Source: a virus
IMG/VR virus record: IMGVR_UViG_3300045988_183727
Strand: one strand, 5' to 3'
DNA length: 64,000 nt
The translations under genes were made by a program, and so were the position numbers. The stretch's first letter is position 1, and each line of letters begins with the position of its first letter. The notes under the pieces were generated by a model, which searched no databases, was not told the DNA's origin, and saw only the letters and a program-made list of their open reading frames with translations. Shown here in pieces: positions 8,593-62,717 of the stretch.

Positions 8593-8839
8593 TACGACTT
8601 GTGAAAATTGGAACAATCATGTCTTTCGTGTTGACATTATTCCTAATATAAGCCGTGTTAATTTGTGGGATGTTACAGTTTCGTGTAACATCTTTTAATC
8701 ATTTGTGAAAGGATTCTGCTCGTTTTTGTGCTAAATGTAGATATTCTTACCAAATTTTACGTTTTTAGGCGTTTTGCTTTTCTCCCTTACGGCTTGAATG
8801 ATTTTGGCGTATGAGCCACCCTTTTTACGCCCTGCGTAC

Positions 8840-19629: not shown

Positions 19630-19717
19630 GGAGAGGTGGCCGAGTGGTTGAAGGCACCGGTCTTGAAAACCGGCGATGCGAAAGCATCCGTGGGTTTGAA
19701 TCCCACTCTCTCCGCCA
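19630..19717 (+). tRNA. tRNA-Ser (anticodon TGA), CCA encoded
   Basis: Acceptor GGAGAGG/TCTCTCC, D-arm GTGGCCGAGTGG, anticodon loop CTTGAAA, long variable arm, T-loop GGTTTGAATCC. Confidence 0.9.
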
Positions 19718-19728
19718 AAAAAAAACAA

Positions 19729-19859
19729 GTACGGACGGTATAACCGGAATTAACGCCTGTGGAGATGCATGGTCGTCGCGGAAGCAGGAATACTCTGTTG
19801 GCTGGCAATCACGTGAGAGGTGACGACCAGCACCTTGGGGGAACTGAATACCTGTGCTG
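19729..19859 (+). ncRNA. Omega-RNA-like scaffold, copy A (structured RNA family, 5 copies)
   Basis: GTACGGACGGTATAACCGGAATTAACGCCTGTGGAGATGCATGG...GCTGG-CAA-TCAC-GTGAGAG-GTGA-CGA-CCAGC...GGGGGAAC plus the linker TGAATACCTGTGCTGG. The central hairpin covaries among copies. Confidence 0.7.
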
Positions 19860-20053
19860 GGTATACACCACCCAGAAATAGCAGGGTACTATACCACAAG
19901 ATGCCGCACGTTGAATTTGAGTGGCGGTATACACCACCCAGAAAAAAACAGGGTACTATACCATCTCATTGCACACTGGCATATACCCGTTATCGTAAAG
20001 GATATGTCACGGTTAGGGGTATACACCACCCCGAAATAACAGGGTTGTATACC
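19860..20053 (+). repeat. Hairpin-repeat mini-array A (3 repeats; CRISPR-like layout)
   Basis: Repeats at 19860-19895, 19926-19962 and 20018-20053 (GGTATACACCACCCnGAAATAACAGGGTTGTATACC). The spacers are 30 and 55 nt, and the latter contains a degenerate repeat. Confidence 0.7.
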
Positions 20054-20098: not shown

Positions 20099-20117
20099 GT
20101 GTGCAATGATTGCACAC
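20099..20117. repeat. Perfect palindrome GTGTGCAATGATTGCACAC preceding scaffold B (the same palindrome is at 50304-50322)
   Basis: Identical 19-nt palindrome upstream of scaffolds B and C. Confidence 0.8.
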
Positions 20118-20125
20118 TTAAAGAC

Positions 20126-20250
20126 GTACGGATGGTACAGCCGGAATTTACGCCTGTGGAGACGAACTCCGTCGTAGAAGCAGGAACTTCCCATGGCTGA
20201 ACACCGCGTGAGAGGCGGTACAGCACCGAGGTGAGAGCACCTTGGGGAAC
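20126..20250 (+). ncRNA. Omega-RNA-like scaffold, copy B (divergent, no hairpin array)
   Basis: GTACGGATGGTACAGCCGGAATTTACGCCTGTGGAGACG...GCT-GAACA-CCGC-GTGAGAG-GCGG-TAC-AGC...TTGGGGAAC. It ends 30 nt before the ATG at 20281. Confidence 0.65.
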
Positions 20251-20280: not shown

Positions 20281-20691
20281 ATGATTGTTTGTATGGCTGA
20301 TTACTTCAAAGTCGTATATTCGCGGGAGCTCTCCTCAGAATATGAACCGCGTTACATTGTCATACAGCCCAAGACTGGTGCGGTATTGGATGATGCCCAA
20401 GGTTTCGGCTACACGAGCCGCGAGAAGGCGGCAAAGGCATACACCTACAAGAAGATGCCGCATCCCGAACAGCGGTCTCTGGCGGCCCGCAAACGCCGCG
20501 TTGAGAAGTGGTGTCTGGAACACCTTGATGTGGTAGATGGTTATGCTGACATCTGCTTACAGCATATGAAGGCATCGGGAGATGGACGTATCAGTATGAG
20601 TTCTGCTGTTGTCTCCCGTTATTTGAAGGACTGCGGATACGATAATCTGCCGTTCTCGGCACAGGACTTTATCCGCTACTGTAAAACTTGA
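20281..20691 (+). CDS. Hypothetical protein (136 aa)
   Basis: The ATG at 20281 follows ggtggaaggg. The track ORF starts at an upstream TTG inside the RNA scaffold. Confidence 0.65.
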   Translation: MIVCMADYFKVVYSRELSSEYEPRYIVIQPKTGAVLDDAQGFGYTSREKAAKAYTYKKMPHPEQRSLAARKRRVEKWCLEHLDVVDGYADICLQHMKASGDGRISMSSAVVSRYLKDCGYDNLPFSAQDFIRYCKT

Positions 20692-29788: not shown

Positions 29789-29855
29789 GATGTTTTCTCC
29801 TTTCTCCCAGCCTGTGATAAGGACTTACGGGAAACCAAAATAAAATGTATATATA

Positions 29856-29992
29856 GAAAAAGACAATCACTGCCCGAAAAGGGAAGTGATTGTCTGAATT
29901 TATGATGTGACTTGAAAAACGGAGATAAAACTCCTTATAAAAATATCTTCGTAATTATACTATTATACTACCACGTTTCGCTATTTTGTCAA
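29856..29992 (-). promoter_or_regulatory. Promoter-leader-terminator cassette 1
   Basis: Minus strand: TTGACA (29992-29987), 16 nt, TAGTAT (29970-29965), then TATAAT-like (29959-29954), GGAG-n6-CTCC GTTTTT, and the terminator AGACAATCACTTCCC/GGGCAGTGATTGTCT + T5 (29895-29856). Confidence 0.75.
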
Positions 29993-30004
29993 CAGCAGCA
30001 ACGT

Positions 30005-30035
30005 AAAAAAAGAAGCTCCCGAAGGAGCTTCTTTT
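30005..30035. terminator. Bidirectional terminator ending the upstream (-) operon
   Basis: A6 agaagctcc cgaa ggagcttct TTT. Confidence 0.75.
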
Positions 30036-36197: not shown

Positions 36198-36235
36198 GCG
36201 TTTACTCCTTTCGTTTTTACTTGTTCTGAATATAT

Positions 36236-36368
36236 AAAAAGACAGTCGTTCCCAAATGAGAACAACTGTCTTGAATATGATGATGTGACTGAAAACGGAG
36301 ATAAATCTCCTTATAAAAATATCTTCGTAATTATACTACTATACTACCACAATTCTTTATAATGTCAA
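36236..36368 (-). promoter_or_regulatory. Promoter-leader-terminator cassette 2
   Basis: TTGACA (36368-36363), 16 nt, TAGTAT (36346-36341), TATAAT-like (36335-30), GGAGATTTATCTCC GTTTTC, and the terminator AAGACAGTTGTTCTC/GGGAACGACTGTCTT + T5 (36272-36236). Confidence 0.75.
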
Positions 36369-36380
36369 CGGAAACGGTAC

Positions 36381-36413
36381 AAAAAAAGAAGCCCCCGAAA
36401 GAGCTTCTTTTTA
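36381..36413. terminator. Bidirectional terminator ending the upstream (-) operon
   Basis: A7 gaagccc ccgaaa gagcttc T5. Confidence 0.65.
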
Positions 36414-40159: not shown

Positions 40160-40222
40160 ATTTTTCTCCTTTCTCCCAGCCTGTGTTAAGGTCTTATGGG
40201 AACAAAAATGTAGTGAATATAT

Positions 40223-40355
40223 AAAAAGACAGTCGTTCTCAAAAGAGAACAACTGTCTTGAATGTGATGATGTGACTGAAAACGGAGACAAAGCTCCTTA
40301 TAAAAATATCTTCGTAATTATACTACTATACTACCACATTTCCTTATAATGTCAA
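40223..40355 (-). promoter_or_regulatory. Promoter-leader-terminator cassette 3
   Basis: TTGACA (40355-40350), 16 nt, TAGTAT (40333-28), TATAAT-like, GGAGCTTTGTCTCC GTTTTC, and the terminator AAGACAGTTGTTCTC/GAGAACGACTGTCTT + T5 (40259-40223). The post-terminator 5'UTR is shared with cassette 1. Confidence 0.75.
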
Positions 40356-40367
40356 CGGTTTCGACGC

Positions 40368-40400
40368 AAAAGAAAAGAGCCGCACAGCGGCTCTTTTCTT
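40368..40400. terminator. Bidirectional terminator ending the upstream (-) operon
   Basis: aaaagagccgc aca gcggctctttt. Confidence 0.75.
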
Positions 40401-41388: not shown

Positions 41389-41658
41389 TTACATCTCGCC
41401 ATCCTCGGCAGCGGTTATAATACCGAATCTGAGGTTGTTGTTGATGTCGTAGATACTTAATCCGCTATCAAAGTCCTTGCGGAGCTGCGTCGCAGCGGCC
41501 TCTACGGAGTCTTCGCCGTACTCAAACGTCTCGGACTCGACGCAGGTTGCCACAAGCTCCTTCAGCTTTGCGCGGGAAGTCGTCGCAGAAACCAGACGCA
41601 TAGAGTCTGTTGCTTTCCAAGCGTCACAGGCAAACACGATGAAGATAGGATTACTCAT
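41389..41658 (-). CDS. Hypothetical protein (89 aa)
   Basis: The internal ATG at 41658 overlaps the end of the upstream gene. Confidence 0.55.
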   Translation of the reverse strand: MSNPIFIVFACDAWKATDSMRLVSATTSRAKLKELVATCVESETFEYGEDSVEAAATQLRKDFDSGLSIYDINNNLRFGIITAAEDGEM

Positions 41659-42229
41659 TTTCGGCTTGCTCCTTTCTTCTTCCAACGGTGGCTGCGGGGT
41701 ACGGTGTGGCCCGCTTGTTGTTGCTGTCCATGATTCGCATAACATGGACAAGCATCTCGGAATATGCCCTGTGCATGGTTTCATACCGCGCACGCCATGT
41801 ATTATCATCATTGTCGTTCACGCGAGCACTCAGCCCCATGCTGTAGTACAGCGCGGCGTCGATGTCTACCAGCTCCGCTTCAGTCAGGTGGCAGATATAG
41901 GCTCCCAGCTCATTGACAGAAACTGCCATCGGCTGCTCGCACAGTGCTGTGCTGGGGCGGCTCGTGCTCGTGATGAGTACATGGGAGGGCTGCTGCATCT
42001 TTGGAGATGATGTCGTAAATACGACCTCCACTACACTGCTGTAGCGGTTCAGGTCATCCGAAGATACAACGATTGCGGGACGATGCCCTCTGATAACAGA
42101 GCTATTGGAAGGATGTCCGTCTTTATCGCGGAACTGGCTTCCTTCCGGGGCCCAAGGGGAAAAGATTTCGATTTCTTTCGCATTGACCCAAAAAACATCG
42201 CCCCTGCGGATGTTTCCATTTCTACCCAT
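41651..42229 (-). CDS. PemK/MazF-family toxin-like protein with a ~70-aa C-terminal extension
   Basis: RRGDVFWV...GHRPAIVVSSDDLN...VVEVVFTTSS...PSHVLI...STALCEQPMAVSVNELG matches the MazF/PemK pattern. Confidence 0.7.
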   Translation of the reverse strand: MGRNGNIRRGDVFWVNAKEIEIFSPWAPEGSQFRDKDGHPSNSSVIRGHRPAIVVSSDDLNRYSSVVEVVFTTSSPKMQQPSHVLITSTSRPSTALCEQPMAVSVNELGAYICHLTEAELVDIDAALYYSMGLSARVNDNDDNTWRARYETMHRAYSEMLVHVMRIMDSNNKRATPYPAATVGRRKEQAENE

Positions 42230-43217: not shown

Positions 43218-43262
43218 TGTGTTTTCTCCTTTCTTATTGTGTTGTAATGTAAAAAAATATAT

Positions 43263-43394
43263 AAAAAGACAGCTATCCCTGTCTTGGGATAACTGTCTTG
43301 AATACTTGGTGTGACTGGAAGCGGAGATAAGTCTCCTTATAAAAATATCTTCGTAATTATACTATTATACTACCACAATTATTTATAATGTCAA
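43263..43394 (-). promoter_or_regulatory. Promoter-leader-terminator cassette 4
   Basis: TTGACA (43394-43389), 16 nt, TAGTAT (43372-67), TATAAT-like, GGAGACTTATCTCC, and the terminator AAGACAGTTATCCC/GGGATAGCTGTCTT + T5 (43299-43263). Confidence 0.75.
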
Positions 43395-43404
43395 CAATGG
43401 CAGA

Positions 43405-43439
43405 GAAAAAAGAGGCGGCTTTCGCCTGCCTCTTTTTTT
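43405..43439. terminator. Bidirectional terminator ending the RecG operon
   Basis: A6 gaggcgg ctttcg cctgcctc T7. Confidence 0.7.
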
Positions 43440-47989: not shown

Positions 47990-48300
47990 TAACAGCGTGG
48001 ACAGGGCAAGAAAGGCTCGTTCGAAGGGCTCGTGCCTAAAATGACAATATTCTTGCGATTGTAAGAATAAGCGCCTAAATTGCCCGTCCCGTTTTCTTCT
48101 TTCTTTAATTACACTCATAAGCACAATAAAGTCAGCTCCCTGAGGGAAGTGTGCGGGAGTTGCTTCGACTTTCGCGTTGTTCTCCATGCGGGGAGGTTCT
48201 GGCGGTTCGAGTCCGCACGACGCGCCTTCTGTTTTCGCTGCTTCTATCTTCACCTCCGTCTTTTTAACGAGCAGCGGACACAGAAACATCTCTCAATATG

Positions 48301-48379
48301 ATAGCGTAGCATAACTGGTAATGCCGTACCTCTCTCACAGGTAACGATATGTTGGTTCAACTCCAGCCGCTATTGCCAG
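48301..48379 (+). tRNA. Atypical tRNA-like gene, probable anticodon CTC (Glu), CCA encoded
   Basis: Acceptor GATAGCG/CGCTATT, D-arm GCAT-AACTGGTA-ATGC, anticodon stem TACCT/AGGTA with loop CTCTCAC, T-arm GTTGG-TTCAACT-CCAGC. There is one extra nt between the D and anticodon stems and a 7-nt variable loop. Confidence 0.5.
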
Positions 48380-48484
48380 CCGGCGTTCTACCCACCCCGC
48401 CGACATCAACTCTCTTCGGCGCTGGCGGCCTCCGTGCAGACGGGATTACACGTGATAAGCGGAGGCTGCCAGCACCACCAAAAT

Positions 48485-48560
48485 GCTGGTGTAGCTCAGT
48501 AGGCAGAGCGGCGCACTCGTAACGCGCAGGTCGTGGGTTCGACCCCCACCGTCAGCTCCA
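48485..48560 (+). tRNA. tRNA-Thr (anticodon CGT), CCA encoded
   Basis: GCTGGTG...TAGCTCAGTAGG...anticodon loop CTCGTAA...GGTTCGACCCC...CGTCAGC-T-CCA. Confidence 0.85.
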
Positions 48561-48652
48561 TTCCATACTCATTCTCCTTCAAGTGAAGCCCCCGTGTAAC
48601 AGGTCTTTTGAAAAGTGCTTTCAGCCTCGTTGTGCGGGGGCTTCACGACTAT

Positions 48653-48728
48653 GCTGATGTAGCTCAGTTGGCAGAGCGGCGGATTTGTAAACCGCAGGTC
48701 GGGGGTTCAAGGCCCTCCATCAGCTCCA
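48653..48728 (+). tRNA. tRNA-Thr (anticodon TGT), CCA encoded
   Basis: GCTGATG TAGCTCAGTTGG...anticodon loop TTTGTAA...GGTTCAAGGCC...CATCAGC-T-CCA. Confidence 0.85.
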
Positions 48729-48763
48729 TTAAAACCATGTGCTTTTGTGGTGTTTTTATATGC

Positions 48764-48840
48764 GCGGATGTCGTCTAATTTGGTGAGACACCAGCCTTCC
48801 AAGCTGGTCATTGCGGGTTCGAGTCCCGTCGTCCGCTCCA
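48764..48840 (+). tRNA. tRNA-Gly (anticodon TCC), CCA encoded
   Basis: GCGGATG...anticodon stem CCAGC/GCTGG with loop CTTCCAA...GGTTCGAGTCC...CGTCCGC-T-CCA. Confidence 0.85.
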
Positions 48841-48867
48841 AGGACACCGTAAAGTGTGTCCTTTTTT
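48841..48867 (+). terminator. Rho-independent terminator after the tRNA cluster
   Basis: aggacac cgtaaagt gtgtcct followed by T6. Confidence 0.8.
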
Positions 48868-49229
48868 CTTTATCTGCTTATTTGTCCTGTGTTTTTCGGA
48901 CAACATCGGTGAGCGCAAAAGTCGCCTGAAGCGTGAGAAGCGAGCTGCCTGCATCTGTTTTGCGGGCGGTGGCGTGATAAGGGTGAAACTCTGCGCTTTC
49001 AGTAGCCGTAAGCAGGTGAGCAAAAGTCTCTGCGAACGCCTGCATGGTTCGCGGGACAAGGGAAGCCGGAAAAATAAGTAAACGCGGGCCGAGCGCAGAG
49101 GTTGTTGGCGTATTCCAGACGTGGGTGCTGCCTTTTATGCTGTGCTTGTTTGCGTGGGGTCCGGTGTTCTCGCAGTCTGGATGGTTGCTGCGAGAGGTGC
49201 CAAAACTTATTGCGAAAGGACGGAGTTCT

Positions 49230-50288
49230 ATGCCAACTACATTTCAAGCGTTTAAGTATCGCATTTACCCGACTGATGAGCAGGTCGAAATCATTGAAAA
49301 GACTTTCAAGTGCTGCCGGTTTGTGTGGAACCATTTCCTTGAGCGAACCTCCAAAATCTATGACCGTCGGCAGGAAAAGATGACGACCTTCGACTGTATG
49401 AAGGTTCTCACGGAGATGCGGGAGCGCTGGCCTTGGCTTGCGGACTGCGGCTGTACGGCAGAGAGATATGCCATCATTGATTTGTTTGAGGCGCGAAAGG
49501 CGTTCTTCCGCCGCATTAAAGCGGGGGAGAAGCCCGGTTATCCCAAATTTAAGGGCGCGTCCCATCCGACACAGAGTTTTACGACCGCTGGTACTATCTA
49601 TGTGACGGACGATTACATTCAGGTTCCGTTTGGAGGACAGTATCAGAAAATCAACAAGCTCAGGCGAGGGACGGGGCGCCCCATCGAAGGGTCTCCCCGC
49701 GAGGTCACTATTTCTCGGTCTGCTACCGGAAAATACTGGGCATCTGTCTGCTGTAAAGTAGAGCGAGACACGCTGCCTATTGTGGACGGCGAGGTGGGAA
49801 TCAGTCTCGGCCTGAAGGAGTTGGCTATTGACAGCAACGGCGTTCACTATGAGAACCCGAAGCATCTGAGCAAGTCTGCAAAGCGGTTGGCACGTGAGCA
49901 GCGGCGTCTATCCCGCAAGAAGAAGGGCTCTGTCAACTACGAGAAGCAGCGGCGCAAGGTAGCCGGCGTCCATGAGCATATTGCCAATCAGCGCAATGAC
50001 TACCGGCATAAAATCAGCCGTGAACTTGTCAACGCAAACCAGCTTATTGCCGTTGAGAAGGTGGCCGTTAAGCCCTTAGTTGAGGGCAATGAGCAGGCTA
50101 AAAGCATCCTCGATGCCGGCTGGTCTGAACTTACCGGTATGATAAAGTATAAGGCGGACTGGGCTGGACGCACTCTGGTGGACGTAGATACCGCCACCGT
50201 AGCACCGGAAGCCAAGCATGATGAGGCACTGGCACAGGTCGTGCTGTCCGAAGGTCAGCGCATGGCTTCCGAGCAGAAGCCTGCCTAA
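49230..50288 (+). CDS. TnpB-like protein, predicted nuclease-dead and C-terminally truncated (TldR-like); could alternatively be a decaying tnpB
   Basis: N-terminal FKYRIYPTDEQ (OrfB/TnpB). RuvC-I reads VGISLGLK where the family consensus has GIDLG (D to S). RuvC-II has IAVEKV. The ORF stops after KADWAGRTLVDVD, before the zinc finger and RuvC-III. ATG at 49230 follows aaaggacgg. Confidence 0.8.
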   Translation: MPTTFQAFKYRIYPTDEQVEIIEKTFKCCRFVWNHFLERTSKIYDRRQEKMTTFDCMKVLTEMRERWPWLADCGCTAERYAIIDLFEARKAFFRRIKAGEKPGYPKFKGASHPTQSFTTAGTIYVTDDYIQVPFGGQYQKINKLRRGTGRPIEGSPREVTISRSATGKYWASVCCKVERDTLPIVDGEVGISLGLKELAIDSNGVHYENPKHLSKSAKRLAREQRRLSRKKKGSVNYEKQRRKVAGVHEHIANQRNDYRHKISRELVNANQLIAVEKVAVKPLVEGNEQAKSILDAGWSELTGMIKYKADWAGRTLVDVDTATVAPEAKHDEALAQVVLSEGQRMASEQKPA

Positions 50289-50303: not shown

Positions 50304-50322
50304 GTGTGCAATGATTGCACAC
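50304..50322. repeat. Palindrome GTGTGCAATGATTGCACAC (second copy)
   Basis: Identical to 20099-20117. It lies between the tnpB-like stop and scaffold C. Confidence 0.8.
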
Positions 50323-50344
50323 ATTGCCAAGGAAATAAAAACGA

Positions 50345-50473
50345 GTACGGACGGTATAGCCGGAATTAACGCCTGTGGAGATGCATGGTCGTCGTGGAAG
50401 CAGGAATACTCTGTTGGCTGGTAGTCACGTGAGAGGTGGCACCAGCGCTTTGGGGAACTGAATACCTGTGCTG
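50345..50473 (+). ncRNA. Omega-RNA-like scaffold, copy C (cognate position 57 nt downstream of the TnpB-like gene)
   Basis: Same family as A, B, D and E. Central hairpin GCTGG-TAG-TCAC-GTGAGAG-GTGG-CA-CCAGC, ending GGGGAAC plus TGAATACCTGTGCTGG. Confidence 0.75.
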
Positions 50474-50563
50474 GGTATACACCACCCGGAAATAACAGGG
50501 TTGTATACCAATTCATGGCGTCTCCTTTTGGTATACACCACCCGGAAATAACAGGGTTTTACC
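50474..50563 (+). repeat. Hairpin-repeat mini-array C (2 repeats, 20-nt spacer)
   Basis: Repeats at 50474-50509 and 50530-50563. The spacer is AATTCATGGCGTCTCCTTTT. Confidence 0.7.
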
Positions 50564-50663
50564 ATTCGTAATTATAGTTCTTCCCTCCGCTGTGTGGAGC
50601 GTTTTGTCGAAATGACAAAACATTCCTCTTAAATTCTTAAAAACAAGAAAGGAAATAAAGAAT

Positions 50664-51791: not shown

Positions 51792-51811
51792 CGCTAAATA
51801 CCTAAAAGCAA

Positions 51812-51942
51812 GTACGGACGGTATAACCGGAATTAACGCCTGTGGAGATGCATGGTCATCGTGGAAGCAGGAATGCTCTGTTAGCTGGTTTTCATGTGAG
51901 AGATGATGCCAGCAGCTAAGGGAACTGAATATGCCTGTGTTG
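51812..51942 (+). ncRNA. Omega-RNA-like scaffold, copy D
   Basis: Central hairpin GCTGG-TTT-TCAT-GTGAGAG-ATGA-TG-CCAGC (TCAT/ATGA covaries with TCAC/GTGA). Linker TGAATATGCCTGTGTTGG. Confidence 0.7.
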
Positions 51943-52155
51943 GGTGTATGAGGCCCTGAAATGACAGGGGTGTATACCATATAATCTGTCGCTTGAGGAG
52001 ACAGGCGTATAGAGCCCAGAAATAACAGGGTTGTATACCCCTTAACCGCGCTCCAACTTTCAATCCTAAGGTGTATAAGGGCCTGAAATAACGGGGTGAT
52101 ACCTCAGTTATTCCTTTTAGGTACATAACGGGCTAAAACAACAGGGTAGTGTACC
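51943..52155 (+). repeat. Hairpin-repeat mini-array D (4 repeats)
   Basis: Repeats at 51943-51978, 52005-52039, 52071-52103 and 52121-52155. Spacers are 26, 31 and 17 nt. The 3' arm CAGGGTTGTATACC is conserved while the 5' arm varies but keeps pairing. Confidence 0.7.
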
Positions 52156-52743: not shown

Positions 52744-53252
52744 TGTATATGTCTCAGAAAGAGTTCAACGCTATGATGAAGAAAAACCCCCGCCTCCGTG
52801 TTCACGGTGCAAATAACAATACCCGCGAACATCGCTCCAAAGCGAATAAGGCGGCAAAATATAGAAATGTAAAGGTCTACGAGTATGCCGATGGGCTGGC
52901 TTTTTTCGGTAAGCCCCGCAATAATGGTGAAATCCCTATCGCTGTCTTTGACAGCAAGAAGGAGTACCACCGCTGGAAAGAGCTTCAGATTTTGGAGCGC
53001 GGCGGACATATCCACGACCTTCGCCGGCAGGTGCCTTTGACCATCATTACCGAGTTCGAGTATCGTGGTCAGAAGGTCTCCGGTATTACTTACAAAGCCG
53101 ACGCCGTCTATGTGCGCGACGGCAAGTGTGTGGTAGAGGACGTGAAGCCCTTCGATACCACAACGCAGAAGTATCGAACTACAAAGGATTTCAACCTCAA
53201 GTGGAAGCTGCTCAAGGCTGAATATCCTACTTGGTCTTTTGAAATCTATTAA
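52743..53252 (+). CDS. DUF1064-family protein (phage-type, nuclease-fold)
   Basis: KYRNVKVYEYADGLAFFGKPRN..., FDSKKEYHRWKELQILERGGHI..., ITYKADAVYVRDGKCVVEDVKP... follows the DUF1064 pattern. The start overlaps the upstream stop (TAATG). Confidence 0.65.
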   Translation: MYMSQKEFNAMMKKNPRLRVHGANNNTREHRSKANKAAKYRNVKVYEYADGLAFFGKPRNNGEIPIAVFDSKKEYHRWKELQILERGGHIHDLRRQVPLTIITEFEYRGQKVSGITYKADAVYVRDGKCVVEDVKPFDTTTQKYRTTKDFNLKWKLLKAEYPTWSFEIY

Positions 53253-53258
53253 AAACGA

Positions 53259-53390
53259 GTACGGATGGTATAACCGGAATTAACGCCTGTGGAGATGCAT
53301 GGTCGTCGTGGAAGCAGGAATACTCTGTTGGCTGGTAATCATGTGAGAGATGATACCGGCACCTTTGGGGAACTGAATATGCCTGTGTCG
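53259..53390 (+). ncRNA. Omega-RNA-like scaffold, copy E
   Basis: Central hairpin GCTGG-TAA-TCAT-GTGAGAG-ATGA-TA-CCGGC, whose U-G pair is only allowed on the + strand RNA. Linker TGAATATGCCTGTGTCGG. Confidence 0.7.
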
Positions 53391-53533
53391 GGTATATAGA
53401 ACCCTGAAACGACAGGGTTGTGTATCACAGAATAACTGCGGCAGCGGCATATATGGCTCTGAAACAACAGGGTTGTATACCGCATAAAAAAGGCTATGGT
53501 GTGTAATACCCTGAAATAACAAGGTTGTGTACC
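53391..53533 (+). repeat. Hairpin-repeat mini-array E (3 repeats)
   Basis: Repeats at 53391-53426, 53447-53481 and 53499-53533. Spacers are 20 and 17 nt. Confidence 0.7.
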
Positions 53534-53820: not shown

Positions 53821-54615
53821 TTGGGAAACACAAGCAAAAAGCACGTAAAATGGGGGATTTTCAAGACTGCACTTTTTACGTTCCTGTTCGTCGCAGTATC
53901 CGTTTTCTACTTTCTCTCCACCAACGTGACACTCGCACAGGCCGAAGAACGCTCGAACCACGAATCACCTCCTGCAGCAGAGGTTGCCGCCCAGATGGAC
54001 GACACCAAGCTGTCAGAAGAAGCGCAGCAAGATGTTTTGGTGCTGAAGGAAGGAATCCTCGACCCGCTTTCCGACATCACGGAAGCAGAGAACTCTGAAG
54101 ATGACCCCGACGCCGTGGAGGAAGTACAGGAAGTCGTTCCGACAGTCTGTTCCTACTGCGGCTCTGAGAACCATAGTTCCTCAATCTGTGCAAAGAGGTC
54201 TATCGCCAATGGTGCCTATGGGCGCTGGGTGATTCCGTCTGTTGGCTGTAATGTAGCGGCCTACTCGTGTAACTGGGATGCAGACCAATCCTATGTTCAG
54301 GAAATTACTGACAGTTCCGACAGTGCAGCTTTCTTGACTTGCGGCGGCGTTGGTGTTCTTGCGGACCACAATAACCAAGGTTTCTGTGGACTTTCCAATA
54401 TTTCTGTTGGCGCAAAAGCCTACATGGATTTTGGTGATGGTGCAACTTACTACGAGTGCTATCAGGTTGAATATGGACACAATACCGGCGAAAAGATGCT
54501 CGATGGAAATGGAAACATAATGAGCTACAGCAACTATTCTTCCGGCACCGTGATTTGCTACACCTGCCTTGACCACTGGACCAACATTTACATCACTTAC
54601 TGGACGCCGGTATAA
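53821..54615 (+). CDS. Sortase-like membrane-anchored protein, paralogue 1
   Basis: N-terminal TM, acidic linker, CSYCGSENHSSSIC. Sortase-type strands are WVIPSVGCNVAAY, LADHNNQGF and VICYTC. No obvious catalytic Arg. TTG start follows aaagggga. Confidence 0.55.
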   Translation: MGNTSKKHVKWGIFKTALFTFLFVAVSVFYFLSTNVTLAQAEERSNHESPPAAEVAAQMDDTKLSEEAQQDVLVLKEGILDPLSDITEAENSEDDPDAVEEVQEVVPTVCSYCGSENHSSSICAKRSIANGAYGRWVIPSVGCNVAAYSCNWDADQSYVQEITDSSDSAAFLTCGGVGVLADHNNQGFCGLSNISVGAKAYMDFGDGATYYECYQVEYGHNTGEKMLDGNGNIMSYSNYSSGTVICYTCLDHWTNIYITYWTPV

Positions 54616-54654: not shown

Positions 54655-55455
54655 GTGAAAACGAAATTCAAAATCCCTCGGTGGGCACTCTTCACCGTTA
54701 TCATTCTGTCCTTTATCGGTGGTCTCTTTGCCATCTCCATGCTGCCTGCTTTCGCATCACGTGAAAGCTCTCCGCCTTTGGCAGTAGCAGAAGCCGCGCA
54801 GAACGAGGAAAAGGACGCAAATTCTGATGCTCAGACTCCCGAAGCAAACGAGACATCCGATGAGCATGGAAGCACTGAAACTCCCGTAGAGGACGAGCCT
54901 CAGGCAGACGATGCTGTCGTCGTTGAAGTGACTCCCTCCGAAGAGCCTGTTCAGGAAACTCCAACCACCTGTTCCTACTGCGGCAGCGTAGAACACACCA
55001 AAGACTACTGTGCCGTCCGTGCCGTGGACAATGGCGCCATTGGACGGCTCCGGATTCCCTCTGTCGGTGTTGACGTGGCTGTTTACGACGTCACTTGGTA
55101 CTCTCTGCAGCACACCACCGAAGGCGATAACTACGCGCAGGCCGTTACAGATGCATGGGACAGCGCCGCACAAATCGTCTATCTCGGCCAGACCGTTATT
55201 GGCGACCATAATAATCAGGGCTTCTCCGCCATCAACAACTGTGCCGAGGGCACTTACTCCTACATCGACATAGGCGACTCTGTCCTGACCTATGTTTGTA
55301 CCGGCATCCAGCATGGTCGCAACCCCGGTGGCTATCTTACCGGAGCCGATGGCGATAGCATCTATACCTCTTACTTCAATCCCAATGGTCTGACGCTGTA
55401 TACCTGTCTCGACCACAACTTCAATGTTGCCCTTGTGACATTCCAGCCTGCTTAG
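54655..55455 (+). CDS. Sortase-like membrane-anchored protein, paralogue 2
   Basis: GTG start follows aagaaagga. Contains CSYCGSVEHTKDYC, LRIPSVGVDVAVY, IGDHNNQGF and LTLYTC. Confidence 0.55.
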   Translation: MKTKFKIPRWALFTVIILSFIGGLFAISMLPAFASRESSPPLAVAEAAQNEEKDANSDAQTPEANETSDEHGSTETPVEDEPQADDAVVVEVTPSEEPVQETPTTCSYCGSVEHTKDYCAVRAVDNGAIGRLRIPSVGVDVAVYDVTWYSLQHTTEGDNYAQAVTDAWDSAAQIVYLGQTVIGDHNNQGFSAINNCAEGTYSYIDIGDSVLTYVCTGIQHGRNPGGYLTGADGDSIYTSYFNPNGLTLYTCLDHNFNVALVTFQPA

Positions 55456-55457
55456 GC

Positions 55458-55489
55458 TATTTAAGATTTGATGTGGGAAACCCACAAAA
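55458..55489. repeat. Left terminal inverted repeat (contains the GTGGG-AAA-CCCAC hairpin)
   Basis: Perfect 32/32 match to the reverse complement of 57153-57184. Confidence 0.9.
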
Positions 55490-55659
55490 AGTCTTATAGC
55501 CACAGCCACACCGACGTGTGTAAGTCTTCTCTCAGGTAGAGGCGACGGATGCACCTGCGGGTTTTCCCAGCTCGCAGCTCTGCCAAGCATACGCCGAGGT
55601 AAGGGAGACATTACCGCCTCCTCCGGAGGCGAGACACTACTGAAAGGAGATGAGCGCAC
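55490..55659 (+). ncRNA. Candidate IscB omega-RNA (HEARO-like) scaffold
   Basis: Non-coding, GC-rich and hairpin-rich (CACAC-CGAC-GTGTG; CGCCTCC-TCC-GGAGGCG) stretch directly upstream of iscB, which is the canonical omega-RNA position. The exact ends are unknown. Confidence 0.5.
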
Positions 55660-57144
55660 ATGACGATGGTCTATGTGCAAAATAAAGACGGTAAACCTTT
55701 GATGCCGACAACTCGCTATTGTTATGTGCGCCTTCTCCTGAAGGAGAAGAAAGCACGAGTTGTTTGCACTACCCCGTTTACCATCCAGTTGAACTATGAT
55801 ACCCCAGACATCACCCAAGACTTGATTCTTGGCATCGACCCCGGCAGAACGAACATTGGTGTCGCTGTCGTCAAGGAGGACGGCCAATGCGTGTTCTCCG
55901 CACATCTGGAGACGCGCAATAAGGACGTACCTCTTCTGATGCAGAAGCGTGCCGGTTTCCGTAAGCAGCATCGCACGTTGGACCGGCGCCGCAAGCGCCA
56001 GCGTCGTGCGAAGGCTGCTGGGACCACCGTTGCCGGGGGTTCTGTCGAGAGATTGCTCCCCGGCTATGAGAAGCCCATTGTGTGCCACCATATCCGCAAT
56101 AAGGAGGCGCGGTTCAATAACCGTAGCCGCCCTGTGGGATGGTTGACACCTACAGCAAATCACCTGCTGCAAACCCACATCAACCTGATTGCAAAGGTTG
56201 CGAAGTTCTTACCTATCACGAAAGTGGTGGTGGAGCTGAACCGCTTTGCATTCATGGCGATGGATAATCCCAATATCCGTCGGTGGGAGTACCAGCAGGG
56301 GCCGTTGTACGGACTGGGTTCCGTGGAGGATGCGGTGTACGCACAGCAGGATGGACATTGCCTGTTCTGCAAGAAGCCCATTGACCATTACCATCATGTT
56401 GTTCCACGCCACAAGGGTGGAAGTGAGACGCTGGCTAACCGGTGTGGGCTTTGTGCGAAGCATCACGACCTCGTCCATAAGGACAAGGCGTGGGCGGATA
56501 AGCTGGTCACACGCAAGGAAGGTATGAATAAAAAGTACCACGCCTTGAGTGTTCTGAACCAGATTATCCCGCATCTCATGGAGTATCTCGGAGGCGAGAC
56601 TCTCTACGATGTCTATGCCACGGATGGTAAGTCCACCAAGGGCTTCCGCGTTGCCAAGAACGTGCCGAAAGAACATTACACGGATGCCTACTGTATCGCC
56701 TGTTCCATTTTGGATGCGAATACGAAGGTCTCCACACCTGCCGAACCCTTTAAGCTGAAGCAGTTCCGTCGGCACGACCGGCAATCCTGCATCCGCCAAA
56801 TGGTTGACCGGAAGTACCTTCTGGATGGCAAGGTCGTTGCAGCAAACCGGCATAAGGCCATTGAGCAAAAGTCCGATAGCCTGCAGGAGTTCCGTGAGGC
56901 TTACGGCGATGCTGCGGTATCGCAGCTCACCGTGAAACCTCACTCGCCCCAGTACAAGGACATGACTCGTATCATGCCGGGGGCGGTGATGGATTTCGGT
57001 GGCGCTGTCGGGATTCTTCAGGGGTCGGAAGGCTTCCATAACGGCAAGCCGGACTACTATAAATCTACGAAAGGAGAACGGGTTTTAACGAGGAGATGTG
57101 CGCTTCTCGCACAGAACGCAGGCATGGTTTTCATTCCCGCCTGA
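55660..57144 (+). CDS. iscB: IscB RNA-guided nuclease (PLMP, RuvC, bridge helix and HNH)
   Basis: DGKPLMPT (PLMP), [14 protein letters not shown] (RuvC-I), Arg-rich [25 protein letters not shown]...[38 protein letters not shown] (RuvC-III). 494 aa. Confidence 0.9.
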
Positions 57145-58359: not shown

Positions 58360-59937
58360 ATGCCTACAGAAAGAAAGAAGAAAACAACAAAAGAAGAAAA
58401 CGCAAAAAATAACTCAACAAAAAACACAATAAAAAAACCAAGAAACTCAACAAGTAACACGAAAAGCAAGAAAGAAAGCAAGTCTCTTTTGGGGTTAAAG
58501 GACCTGATGGAAGATACGTCTCCAGAAAAAGTCGTCGGCTGTTATGTTCGTGTATCTACCGATGCACAGGCGGAGCAGGGATATTCTATACCTGACCAAA
58601 CAGCCAAATTGCAGGCCTTTTGTACCGTAAAAGGCTGGGAGAACGCGAAATTCTACACGGACCCCGGATTCAGCGGCAGCAACTTAAATCGACCGGCAAT
58701 GCAGGAAATGATATCCGATGCGATGGAAGGGAAGCTGAAGGCGGTTGTCGTCTTCAAGCTGGACCGTCTCTCCAGAAGTCAGAAGGATACTCTTTATTTA
58801 ATTGAGGATGTGTTTCTTCCGAACGAAGTGGATTTTGTAAGCATTTCCGAGGCCCTTGACACTACCACTCCATATGGACGAGCGATGATAGGTATTTTGA
58901 GCGTCTTCGCCCAGTTGGAACGCGAGAATATCTATATGCGAACCCGTATTGGAATGATGGGTCGTGTAAGCGCGGGGTATTGGCGTGGCGGCGGAAACGT
59001 TCCGTTTGGCTATGATTATGACAAGACAAGCAAATCCCTTATCCCAAATGCTGACGCGCCAAAAGTGCCACAGGCTTACGACCTCTACATCAAGGGCTAT
59101 AGTTGCCAGAAAATTGCGGATATGCTCGGACTAAGTAGCGAACAGCTCGTGAGGAATATTCTCACCAAGCGCACATATTGCGGCTACATCAACTACAAAG
59201 GCAAAGACTACAAGGGTTTCCACGAGCCTTTGATTGATGAAGAGCGGTTCATGCTCGTGGCTGCAGAAATGGAACGCCGTGGGAAGGAAAACCTCGCAGT
59301 CTGCGGCAACAATAAATATTATCTTCTTACCGGGCTTGTTTTCTGCGGAGATTGTGGCGCCAGAATGCGGTACATGAAGTGGGGGAAGTATATCCGTATC
59401 GTCTGCTACTCGCACACGTGTAAAAAGAACATGGTTAAGGACCCCGATTGTCCAAACAAGGGCGTTCGCGCAGATGAACTTGAGAAGGTTGTTATCTCAA
59501 AACTTTTTGACATTGGTACTGACATTTCTCTCGACGATTTTGACGACACCCACGTGCCTGCAAGTGCAGCAGAAATCCTGACGAACCGGATAGATGAGCT
59601 GAAGGAGTCTCTCAGGCGCCTATATGGGCTCTATGCCGACATCGGAGACCCCATGGTGTACGAGCGCATTGAGGATGTGCGAGGACAGCTCCACGTATTG
59701 CAGAGACAGCTTGCAAGCGAGGAAACGCAGAAACTCAAGGAAGAGCACATCAACTACGTCCGTGAGAAAATTCAGACTATTGGAGACCTCTGGCCCCATC
59801 TTACTCCTATGGAGCGCCAAACTCTTGTTCGTGATTGTGTTGAGAAGGTTATTTTGCATCACAACGGACGTGTTGAGGTTTACTACACTTTCCATACTGA
59901 GAAAGATAGTAAAATTCTCAAAAGGAAAGGCGCATAA
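58360..59937 (+). CDS. Large serine recombinase with a Lys-rich N-terminal extension
   Basis: Resolvase catalytic CYVRVSTDAQAEQGYSIPDQ, recombinase domain, zinc ribbon CGDCGARM...CYSHTC, and a coiled-coil C-terminus. An alternative start is at 58507. Confidence 0.9.
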   Translation: MPTERKKKTTKEENAKNNSTKNTIKKPRNSTSNTKSKKESKSLLGLKDLMEDTSPEKVVGCYVRVSTDAQAEQGYSIPDQTAKLQAFCTVKGWENAKFYTDPGFSGSNLNRPAMQEMISDAMEGKLKAVVVFKLDRLSRSQKDTLYLIEDVFLPNEVDFVSISEALDTTTPYGRAMIGILSVFAQLERENIYMRTRIGMMGRVSAGYWRGGGNVPFGYDYDKTSKSLIPNADAPKVPQAYDLYIKGYSCQKIADMLGLSSEQLVRNILTKRTYCGYINYKGKDYKGFHEPLIDEERFMLVAAEMERRGKENLAVCGNNKYYLLTGLVFCGDCGARMRYMKWGKYIRIVCYSHTCKKNMVKDPDCPNKGVRADELEKVVISKLFDIGTDISLDDFDDTHVPASAAEILTNRIDELKESLRRLYGLYADIGDPMVYERIEDVRGQLHVLQRQLASEETQKLKEEHINYVREKIQTIGDLWPHLTPMERQTLVRDCVEKVILHHNGRVEVYYTFHTEKDSKILKRKGA

Positions 59938-61230: not shown

Positions 61231-61782
61231 CTAAATTGACTCGTCCTCCGTCTCATCCAAACGTTTGATGCGTTGAAAGCCATTTGCAGAGACCTTCTTT
61301 CGACTGCCATCTGCTCTATGGAAAAAATCGCCGATAATAATGCCTTCTTCAACGTATCGTTTTGAACTGGGATGGTTTCGAGTTCCGCCCCACACCAAGA
61401 AAGAACAAAGCCATCTTTCAGGAACGGTTCGGTTGTTCTTCACCTGAGACTGTTCCTTCCTGCATTTTTCAACGTCCTCATTGATTCTCTTGTCTGTAAG
61501 AGAAGCAAGATAATCAATATCTAAAGAGTAGAAGTCGGTTCCGTTGAAATACTTGCTCGTATGGTGCCATGACGCATACTGCAGAACCTTTGTCCGCAAG
61601 AAAGAAAGCGGGGCCTGCTTGAGCTTTTCAATGTTGCATTGAAGAGACAGCGTTCCGTTCAAAATCTCGGCCTCGATTGCGTTCAGTATGGCTGCTTTCG
61701 TCCACTTTGAACGCGGTTTTTCGCCGGATTCATAAGCATCCACAGCGTTGTTGCTCATCGAGTAGCCGGAATACCCGGCCAT
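61231..61782 (-). CDS. Hypothetical protein (183 aa)
   Basis: ATG overlaps the upstream stop. Confidence 0.65.
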   Translation of the reverse strand: MAGYSGYSMSNNAVDAYESGEKPRSKWTKAAILNAIEAEILNGTLSLQCNIEKLKQAPLSFLRTKVLQYASWHHTSKYFNGTDFYSLDIDYLASLTDKRINEDVEKCRKEQSQVKNNRTVPERWLCSFLVWGGTRNHPSSKRYVEEGIIIGDFFHRADGSRKKVSANGFQRIKRLDETEDESI

Positions 61783-62717
61783 TACACATTCCCTCCGTCA
61801 TCGGAGATACCCTGCAGAAGCAGGTTCTCGTCGATATATGTAGCTGTTTCATCTGCGCGATGCAGAAGAAAAGCCAGAGGATAGCGCGTAAAGGCCGCTG
61901 AGGTATTCTTATCTGTGGAATACTCTCCCATGTGGAAACGGATTGCAAAAGCCTCCGGCATCGTCAGGCGAATATAGCGTTCTGCAAGAAACACAGATTT
62001 ATCGCCGTGGCTGCCGAACGGGAGCTTCTCGTCATAGGAAATCCAAGGCACCTTCTTCCACTGTCCGGTTTTGGGGTCCTTCACATTTCTGCTGTCCCAT
62101 TTATAGAAATCGGCCTTGCAGATATCGTGAAGAAGTGCGGAGATGGCAATGCTATCATTGACCATCTTCCTCTCCCCCTCGGAAAGCGTCTTTCCATTCC
62201 GCTCAATTTCCGTGAAGTATGTGTCGTTCAGACGCATAAATACGTTGACTGAGTGGTCCAGAAGCCCGCCGCAGTAGCTTGAGTGATACTTAGCACTTGC
62301 GGGCGCCGTGAAGAAATCCGTCTTCTCCAGCAGCCACAGCACAAGGTCTCTGATGCCTTTGCGTCCCGTACTGACAAGTGCGCCAATGAACGCGATGGCT
62401 TTAGATTCATACTCCTTATCGGGAGTTGTGCCGGCAGGGTCCTCTACCGTAGGGCGGTAGTCCCCGCCGTGCGCCGTGTACTTTGCGAGCGCCTGAGCTG
62501 CTGCCCATTTAATGAAGTCTTCCAATCTGTCGGGGTCGCCATTGTTAGACTGCTCGACAGTGCGGGAGAAGGCGTCATAGTCATCGAGGGCAGCTTGGCA
62601 GACGTCATCGTGACAAGCTCCCTTTTCAAACTGTCCGGAAATAGCTATCAACGCAGCTTCAGCACGCTCGTGCAGCTTTTGAATCCTCTCGAATTCAGGG
62701 GGGTAGTTGTAACCCAT
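61782..62717 (-). CDS. HD-domain phosphohydrolase
   Basis: AKYHSSYCGGLLDHSVNV...LLHDICK...HGDKSV (HD superfamily motifs). Confidence 0.7.
   Translation of the reverse strand: MGYNYPPEFERIQKLHERAEAALIAISGQFEKGACHDDVCQAALDDYDAFSRTVEQSNNGDPDRLEDFIKWAAAQALAKYTAHGGDYRPTVEDPAGTTPDKEYESKAIAFIGALVSTGRKGIRDLVLWLLEKTDFFTAPASAKYHSSYCGGLLDHSVNVFMRLNDTYFTEIERNGKTLSEGERKMVNDSIAISALLHDICKADFYKWDSRNVKDPKTGQWKKVPWISYDEKLPFGSHGDKSVFLAERYIRLTMPEAFAIRFHMGEYSTDKNTSAAFTRYPLAFLLHRADETATYIDENLLLQGISDDGGNV

Follow-up and report, generated by a model that had tools for sequence, protein, structure and literature searches.

Analysis of a 64,000-nt stretch of DNA from the IMG/VR virus record IMGVR_UViG_3300045988_183727 (hereafter the window) uncovered arrays of 36-nt hairpin repeats, each led by a conserved ~130-nt RNA-like scaffold, on an element that also encodes a TnpB-like protein predicted to be nuclease-inactive (dTnpB). 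On balance we favor the interpretation that these are scaffold-led, CRISPR-like guide arrays for the disabled TnpB, which would use them for multiplexed, RNA-guided binding of DNA and so silence the genes with which competing elements integrate and excise. Under this mechanism, a module would consist of one ~130-nt omegaRNA-derived scaffold followed by n units of a 36-nt repeat and a ~30-nt spacer, the arrays having arisen from a TnpB omegaRNA. The scaffold would act like a tracrRNA, in cis for the first repeat and in trans for later ones, and dTnpB would load the array guides and bind complementary DNA without cutting it, so that rival mobile elements would have their integration and excision genes silenced or blocked. 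A proto-CRISPR layout had already been proposed by a sequence-only reading of the region, and it is supported by homology to an omegaRNA, 30-nt spacers, unit-wise turnover near the scaffold, and six spacer matches to foreign DNA. More tentatively, and as a serious possibility rather than a probability, the system may represent a natural intermediate between an omegaRNA and a CRISPR array, in which a near-canonical TnpB lost nuclease function and the 3′ module of its omegaRNA was reiterated into full-scaffold, spacer-acquiring arrays for multiplexed silencing of rivals’ integration and excision genes, with spacers captured perhaps without Cas1-Cas2 or via a borrowed host integrase.

A whole-window repeat search located five copies of the scaffold, all on the + strand. 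Scaffold A (19722-19852; nhmmer 4.5e-38) starts 5 nt after a tRNA-Ser gene (19630-19717), scaffold C (50338-50466; 1e-38) lies 50 nt 3′ of the dTnpB stop codon, and scaffolds D (51805-51935; 8e-37; alignment A3) and E (53252-53383; 7e-39) follow downstream. Scaffold B (20119-20250; 5e-28) is divergent, carries no repeats, occupies the 5′ untranslated region (UTR) of an open reading frame (ORF) at 20290-20691, and, compared with the other four, has compensatory changes. In relatives of scaffold B, conservation stops at GGGGAACA and is followed by 11-20 variable nt. The helices internal to the scaffold covary, with true compensatory changes. A relaxed nhmmer search found no further scaffolds in the window, Rfam covariance models (HEARO, IS605-orfB motifs, and others) gave no scaffold match even at E<=10, and a promoter scan 5′ of the scaffolds returned no convincing promoter.

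The scaffold core (~65 nt) also occurs alone in 5′-UTR-like positions, of which the B-type scaffold (20119-20250), before the ORF at 20290-20691, is another occurrence. Solo cores stand directly before the dTnpB start codon in relatives L030, L005, L006, and L061 (L-numbers denote related loci fetched for comparison). A perfect palindrome, GTGTGCAATGATTGCACAC, occurs immediately 5′ of scaffold B (20099-20117) and 15 nt 5′ of scaffold C (50304-50322), giving two matches in the window against zero expected; its S-variant pattern is present in 70 of the 242 fetched loci, sometimes four to five times, and it might serve as an operator or as a hairpin for processing.

The 36-nt repeats, with consensus GGTATATAACACCC-TGAAATAACA-GGGTTGTATACC, were found in the window only 3′ of scaffolds. 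The same search returned the tally given by the sequence-only reading, namely 12 copies distributed as 3, 2, 4, and 3 after scaffolds A, C, D, and E, and the interval singled out by that reading (51943-52155) is exactly array D. Array A (19860-20053, + strand) has repeats at 19860-19895, 19926-19962, and 20018-20053, with a 30-nt spacer at 19896-19925 and a second at 19987/19989-20017 that has an external protospacer. Array C (50474-50565, +) has repeats at 50474-50509 and 50530-50565, the latter with a degenerate 3′ end, around a 20-nt spacer (50510-50529), and is followed by terminator-like hairpins at 50585-50621. Array D (51943-52155, +) has repeats at 51943-51978, 52004-52039, 52070-52105 (degenerate), and 52120-52155, separated by spacers of 25, 30, and 14 nt, while array E (53391-53533, +) has repeats at 53391-53426, 53446-53481, and 53498-53533, separated by spacers of 19 and 16 nt. 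The degenerate repeats are the distal ones (starting at 50530, 52070, and 52120), as at CRISPR trailer ends. Spacers in the window are mostly short: only three are ~30 nt, the others measure 14-25 nt, and one gap spans 55 nt, so the range of 17-31 nt given earlier needs correction to 14-30 nt plus the single 55-nt gap, with a family-wide mode of 30 nt.

Pattern scans recovered 76 stretches with a scaffold and 65 with a repeat on ~30 IMG/VR contigs of 5-370 kb, along with a further 99 stretches from metagenome contigs, mostly human-gut assemblies. Scaffold-plus-repeat modules amount to 221 arrays on these human-gut and IMG/VR contigs. Of the 141 scaffold copies in the window and 81 IMG/VR loci, 114 lead into a chain of one to eight repeats; repeat 1 always begins ~137 nt from the start of the scaffold, and repeats most often recur with a period of 66 nt. 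The description of the repeats as too few and too degenerate for CRISPR finders thus suits the window only, as relatives carry up to eight repeats per array. When spacer clusters of 26-34 nt were pooled over all loci (n=107), 80 were exactly 30 nt and 98 were 29-31 nt, and the spacer sequences are unrelated to one another. No repeat arrays were found in 185,579 species-representative genomes, where the pattern gave only 12 isolated chance matches, and no similar DNA was found in PLSDB or INPHARED.

The repeats form a hairpin at the level of RNA. In a set of 137 distinct repeats, conservation of the loop and 3′ arm (GAAAUAACAGGGUUGUAUACC) is 80-99%, while 5′-arm positions 3-11 vary, also within arrays, leaving the repeats less uniform than canonical CRISPR repeats. 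Changes at 5′-arm positions 4, 7, and 8 are transitions, with A/G opposite U and U/C opposite G, so that G-U keeps the pairing; among 97 distinct repeats, the share of cells that pair is 90% on the + strand vs. 77% on the − strand. Pairing kept via G-U, with the + strand favored, indicates an RNA hairpin of the + strand rather than a DNA structure, in agreement with the earlier description of a conserved 3′ arm and a variable 5′ arm that retains pairing, and with its strand now fixed. The variable 5′ arm folding on the 3′ arm is probably an RNA hairpin for processing or protection. The same G-U dependence speaks against a conjugative leading region with promoters or origins of single-stranded DNA (Frpo/ssi-like), structures that would form in the strand being transferred and drive expression of early genes. 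The element does look conjugative (topoisomerase III, a TraI_2-like gene, and an adhesin), and modules recur 5′ of small co-oriented genes, but no −35/−10 mimic was found and neither the foreign-matching 30-nt spacers nor the omegaRNA homology described below would be explained; we give this reading very little credence.

Comparison of orthologous arrays showed that spacer turnover is unit-wise and mostly at the scaffold-proximal end. Array D equals the array of L011, L029, L034, L035, and L047 minus one 66-nt repeat-plus-spacer unit; the extra unit of those relatives, with spacer AAACGGCCACCTTTTGACGAGAAGGGCGAG, sits between repeats 2 and 3 of the window array. Orthologues of array C carry 0-3 differing scaffold-proximal spacers and then an identical terminal flank, and the array E spacer pattern ‘0 1 T2’ or ‘0 T2’ is kept in 17 related arrays. 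On near-identical elements, orthologous arrays are alike distally and unlike scaffold-proximally, as in the series ‘116 87 88 T89’, ‘110 87 88 T89’, ‘86 87 88 T89’, and ‘115 116 117 87 118 T89’. Over 103 array variants, unshared spacers numbered 548 at proximal, 67 at internal, and 250 at distal positions, and the terminal flank was common to 132 variant pairs while the first spacer was common to 38, counts that are descriptive since variant pairs are not independent. The unit of gain and loss is one repeat with its spacer, and not a hairpin pair.

Six spacers match foreign elements, five of them in the xis-int region of MT835962 and one in large serine recombinase genes. When 99 spacers were concatenated and compared with INPHARED by BLAST, two matches fell outside arrays, and a set of 38 new spacers searched against the same database added only the MT835962 int match. 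The array A spacer at 19989-20017, (CC)GTTATCGTAAAGGATATGTCACGGTTAGG, agrees at 29 of 29 positions with the sense strand of a gene for a large serine recombinase in MT839899; in IMG/VR relatives the match extends to 31/31, the two preceding bases included, and 21 matches were found in fetched serine-recombinase loci, e.g., L099. The window’s own recombinase was ruled out as the target of this spacer, as it contains no similar site. The remaining five matches come from spacers of different arrays and fall in one 1.3-kb xis-int region of MT835962, a 14.7-kb record: protospacer 1 covers the promoter/−10 region just 5′ of the xis ribosome-binding site (RBS; 27/30), protospacer 2 lies over the xis RBS and start codon (29/30), protospacer 3 is in the 3′ part of xis (29/30), and protospacers 4 and 5 occupy one int site on opposite strands (31/31 and ~23/30). 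Two of these spacers hold scaffold-proximal positions in orthologous arrays of different elements. The sense strand carries five of the six protospacers, and a G at position −1, also in five of six, is the only hint of a transposon-adjacent motif (TAM).

The database search of spacers suggested by the sequence-only reading yielded six matches to foreign xis, int, and recombinase DNA, and none in PLSDB. Exact IMG/VR scans of two other window spacers recovered the arrays themselves only, and no spacer matched outside the arrays in the window or in 640 kb of related loci. No relatives of the MT835962 integrase were found in IMG/VR, and the target xis-int module was not found on array-bearing elements, the sole likeness being a 55-nt scaffold-core similarity. 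MT835962, the very element targeted by the spacers, carries a solo scaffold core of its own (L083 1147-1201), ~100 nt 5′ of xis and with a terminator-like hairpin after it. The flank after array C shares 11 nt with four sites, which proved to be one unrelated 166-nt promoter-like repeat family.

These observations bear on the possibility that the repeats are structural or regulatory RNA hairpins (processing sites, mRNA stabilizers, or attenuators) separated by unconstrained filler from 66-nt tandem duplication. Such a role would fit the location of arrays in the gaps that separate co-oriented genes, where the next RBS often follows after 30-100 nt, with no dedicated promoter found, a hairpin selected at the RNA level, and a 65-nt scaffold core that is also found alone in 5′ UTR positions. 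Filler, however, would not give matches of 29-31 nt, perfect or near-perfect and bounded exactly by repeats, to foreign xis, int, and recombinase genes, five of them on one 1.3-kb target, would not hold a length of 30 nt while the sequences are unrelated, and leaves the scaffold-proximal turnover among near-identical elements unexplained. We regard this explanation as improbable.

The origin of the scaffold can be traced to an intact TnpB paralog of 372 aa, absent from the window and present on sister elements (L011, L055, L029, L046, and L023). The paralog has the motifs GIDVG, AVEDL, two CxxC pairs, and DRDINAA, and shares 51% identity with the window dTnpB. In L011, the gene spans 2442-3560 and is followed by the omegaRNA region (3561-3756). 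The region between its stop codon and the right end contains the scaffold core, in the form ACGG-hairpin-GAAnTTACGCCTGTGGAGA-hairpin-GAAGCAGGAA, and the core of scaffold C, ACGG-hairpin-GGAATTAACGCCTGTGGAGA-hairpin-GAAGCAGGAA, is common to this omegaRNA. On these sequence grounds, the scaffold derives from an omegaRNA, being a homologue of the one that belongs to the intact paralog. The L011 copy of the paralog sits inside a tRNA-like sequence with GGTTCTGG on both sides, one of at least three different insertion sites overall; the flanking pair is unusual, as IS200/IS605 elements make no target duplication.

The repeat also resembles part of this RNA. The right-end boundary of the paralog, ...AAAAGGTTGAATATCC|flank, was mapped from three insertion sites, and the repeat end, ...AACAGGGTTGTATACC|spacer, resembles this guide-adjacent end of the omegaRNA (AAAAGGTTGAATATCC|flank). 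The scaffold ends in ...GGGGAACTGAATA(TG)CC (..GAACTGAATA[TG]CC), and the ends of scaffold, repeat, and paralog omegaRNA are visibly related. Only TGTGYYG separates the scaffold from repeat 1; of the 16-18-nt conserved linker noted earlier, most is the scaffold’s own 3′ end, as judged from homology with the paralog omegaRNA, and the 7 nt of TGTGYYG remain as the true linker. Just after GCAGGAA comes a segment that can pair with the guide-adjacent strand in each of the three RNA variants, as UCGACC:GGUUGA in the paralog, UUCCCA:UGGGAA in the B-type, and ACUCUGUU:AACAGGGU in the array-type, where the partner lies inside the repeat. RNAalifold, run on 51 scaffold-plus-repeat-1 sequences, independently predicts the ACUCUGUU:AACAGGGU pairing along with GGUAUA:UAUACC, and the predicted scaffold:repeat helices are 97-99.7% paired. 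As the repeat is complementary to ACUCUGUU and GGUAUA in the scaffold, the scaffold could act like a tracrRNA. The data are compatible with a repeat 3′ half (AACAGGGUUGUAUACC) that is the reiterated guide-adjacent strand and a scaffold that is a tracr-like RNA with an anti-repeat.

The boundary mapping also addresses the null model of the sequence-only reading, in which the hairpins are debris of palindrome-associated transposable elements (PATEs), that is, TnpA-recognized subterminal palindromes of stacked non-autonomous IS200/IS605 insertions. PATEs are likewise non-coding derivatives of IS605-family ends with palindromes, the scaffold derives from an IS605-type right end, intact paralogous insertion sequences (IS) are present in relatives, and the repeats are imperfect palindromes. 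The hairpins, however, lie beyond the mapped right end, no left-end sequence stands beside them, and no Y1 TnpA was found among ~60 window ORFs. They are tandem, in phase, in one orientation, and at a fixed offset from the scaffold, are confined to positions after scaffolds in the window, and are missing as arrays from the species-representative bacterial genomes; the polymorphic unit is a repeat with its spacer, and spacers match foreign DNA. The null model accordingly falls away almost entirely, retaining in our estimate only a slight chance.

The candidate effector, dTnpB (49230-50288, + strand), is a 352-aa TldR-like protein predicted to be nuclease-inactive. Pfam searches returned matches to HTH_OrfB_IS605 and OrfB_IS605, with the TNB domain below cut-off, and a phmmer search of PDB sequences aligned it to ISDra2 TnpB (1e-49) only to about residue 324 of 408. 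In the alignment, the RuvC-I motif reads GISLG (D→S), the RuvC glutamate is kept, and a 28-aa zinc finger is deleted. The serine in RuvC-I and the loss of the zinc finger are found throughout the clade, in the window protein and its relatives P0002 (88%) and P0003 (79-81%). The nearest relatives of dTnpB beyond these are full-length TnpBs of 370-384 aa at 51-53% identity. In an AlphaFold model (pLDDT 87.6), the TnpB fold is kept, with 8EXA (ISDra2 TnpB) as the best PDB match (TM 0.82). Together, sequence and model indicate that dTnpB is probably a shrunken, non-cutting TnpB. The gene is found on ~25 of 27 array-bearing IMG/VR contigs (fetched pieces), its position beside RecG and tRNA genes is conserved, and the contig of P0003 has dTnpB in the same layout. 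Left-end sequence of the paralog IS is absent 5′ of the gene, and neither a Y1 nor a serine TnpA is adjacent to it. Between tRNA-Gly and the dTnpB start lies a non-coding, GC-rich stretch of 390 nt (48841-49229) without an Rfam match; it can be read in the window as a 60-aa N-terminal extension (414-aa ORF) but is frameshifted in relatives, and the extension is therefore probably not coding.

An apparently intact IscB-like gene (55660-57144, + strand) contains a Pfam RRXRR match (2e-49), a PLMP-like N-terminus, an HNH motif, and a RuvC aspartate; the region upstream of it (55455-55659) gives only a weak partial HEARO match at 55551-55583. The arrays could therefore be genuine spacer arrays that serve another effector, either IscB or a host CRISPR-Cas system (orphan arrays using host Cas proteins and Cas1-Cas2), with dTnpB a mere neighbor. 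This IscB, with its RRXRR, HNH, and RuvC domains, adjoins arrays in ~11 related loci, and the absence of visible cas1 and cas2 on the element makes host adaptation in trans plausible. Type II CRISPR arrays combine a 36-nt repeat with a 30-nt spacer, and the geometry described here matches. Several features nevertheless make service to another effector unlikely. The conserved half of the repeat is the 3′ half, next to the downstream spacer, which points to the type V/TnpB orientation, whereas a crRNA of the IscB/Cas9 type would have to use the variable 5′ arm. Homology ties both the scaffold and the 3′ end of the repeat to a TnpB omegaRNA and not to HEARO, of which IscB has its own upstream trace. 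The lack of repeat-pattern arrays in the 185,579 species-representative genomes also argues against host use, and it is dTnpB that directly precedes an array in each element.

Several points weigh against the interpretation of dTnpB as an array-guided repressor. The carriers all come from a single lineage of elements, with dTnpB 79-100% identical, so the association of dTnpB with arrays is essentially one evolutionary observation, and an intact IscB is encoded on the same element as dTnpB and the arrays. The C-terminal end of dTnpB, KHDEALA, aligns to DRDENAA, and the third RuvC aspartate may thus be kept, which leaves the loss of nuclease activity as a prediction. In the proposed scaffold:repeat pairing, changes are one-sided only, with no double compensatory change. 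Targets are known for ~6 of roughly 140 spacers, and several window spacers (14-25 nt) are without a target. Derivation of a TAM from the six protospacers gave no motif, and the left-end flanks of the paralog differ, with a conserved block that begins GACTA, hinting at a motif other than the G at −1. Finally, no Pfam match to the adaptation genes cas1, cas2, or cas4 was found among ~60 ORFs of the window.

We found no description of this system in the literature, although the cluster may sit in a supplementary table of a TnpB/Cas12 census. Among its nearest parallels are TldR proteins, which carry the same lesions, bind DNA via an adjacent guide RNA, and repress promoters (Wiegand et al., PMC10705468). 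At the level of sequence, dTnpB has the features by which TldRs are recognized: a deteriorated RuvC (D→S) with the glutamate kept, a lost zinc finger, a location on a mobile element without transposase context or a pair of IS ends, and an omegaRNA-derived scaffold (C) 50 nt 3′ of its stop codon, while two protospacers lie on the promoter/−10 and RBS-ATG of xis. As described, the guide of a TldR is single, fixed, and directed to a host promoter, that of fliC or oppF (PMC10705468), whereas the elements reported here carry from 4 to >10 scaffold-led arrays each, with hairpin repeats and 30-nt spacers that turn over, and the targets lie in other mobile elements.

The arrays themselves have the spacer length, the foreign matches, and the polarized turnover by which CRISPR arrays are recognized operationally, and depart from them in repeat uniformity and linked adaptation genes. 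The half of the repeat that is conserved lies next to the spacer that follows it, and an array is located 3′ of dTnpB, which may correspond to the type V (Cas12) order of a repeat-derived 5′ handle and then the spacer, with the array 3′ of the effector gene; dTnpB has neither an active-type RuvC (RuvC-I D→S) nor a TNB domain or zinc finger. TranC (LaTranC; PDB 9JFO/9JFQ) is also a TnpB-derived effector with a CRISPR array and a tracr-like RNA from a split omegaRNA, and dTnpB shows only a distant similarity to it (phmmer 1e-11 over 80 residues; Foldseek TM 0.69). TranC proteins, however, are larger (478-575 aa) and are active nucleases, whereas the RNA here is unsplit, with scaffold and first repeat as one unit. 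Cas12m, Cas12k, and type IV systems perform guided binding without cleavage, reside on plasmids or transposons, carry spacers against mobile elements, and have no adaptation module of their own. The system described here would share the non-cleaving binding, and shares the mobile carrier, the spacers against mobile elements, and, over the window, the lack of adaptation genes. Those systems have effectors and repeat families that are unrelated or of far greater size, and none is known to have an omegaRNA scaffold in front of each array. Type V-U/Cas12f-like loci, or ‘omegaRNA arrays’, lack adaptation genes, and serial duplication of omegaRNA segments has been proposed for them (Altae-Tran et al. 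2023, PMC10691335), a study that also cites Cas12m and Cas12k and reports altered RuvC sites in some TnpB/Cas12 branches. Like those loci, the window has a TnpB/Cas12 relative with a downstream array and without cas1, cas2, or cas4. Unlike them, dTnpB is still a typical TnpB (51% identical to the intact IS paralog and structurally nearest to ISDra2 TnpB), every array keeps a complete omegaRNA scaffold fused at its 5′ end, and the repeats are hairpins with a freely varying 5′ arm.

What is known of the way in which TnpB omegaRNAs gave rise to type V arrays and tracrRNAs comes chiefly from inference across distant lineages. Here, the steps coexist on sister elements, from an intact IS-borne TnpB with a single-guide omegaRNA to a 51%-identical disabled copy, solo scaffolds, and scaffold-led arrays with repeats that copy the guide-adjacent end of the omegaRNA, which makes the transition directly testable; the array system has the look of a living transition stage from a transposon guide RNA to a CRISPR array. 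If the proposed function is correct, TldR biology would extend to a renewable multi-guide repertoire against mobile elements, analogous to plasmid type IV CRISPR, and an effector of 352 aa that binds DNA and comes with natural array processing would be attractive for compact, multiplexed CRISPR interference (CRISPRi). The evident spacer turnover without cas1 or cas2 on the examined sequence also raises the question of the route of capture.

The arrays look like cargo of a plasmid-like element or an integrative and conjugative element (ICE) from human-gut bacteria. The gene content of the window is plasmid- or ICE-like, though IMG/VR labels relatives as viral, and a phage origin was unsupported, with 0 PHROG matches for 10 large ORFs. 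Encoded genes include a T-Q ester/SpaA adhesin (37-4800), topoisomerase III (TopoIII; 8891-11206), MazF (41651-42229), a large serine recombinase (58360-59937), and a TraI_2-like gene (61782-62717), along with a RecG-like helicase and tRNAs of the element’s own. Five tRNAs, and only tRNAs, reach the Rfam gathering threshold in the window: Ser(tga), at the position given above, and Glu(ctc), Thr(cgt), Thr(tgt), and Gly(tcc) within 48300-48840. Two adjacent genes (53821-54615 and 54655-55455) encode paralogous secreted proteins of ~265 aa, neither with a Pfam match, that have a common C-terminal domain (CSYCGS..H...C motif, DHNNQGF). Two further repeat families look like promoters of the element: one of 166 nt with TTGACA/TATAAT-like boxes on the minus strand (29846-30011, 36222-36387, 40209-40374, and 43248-43413), and one of 38 nt with the pattern ACTTGACATT..TAATAT (at 8838, 17258, 47960, and 58281).

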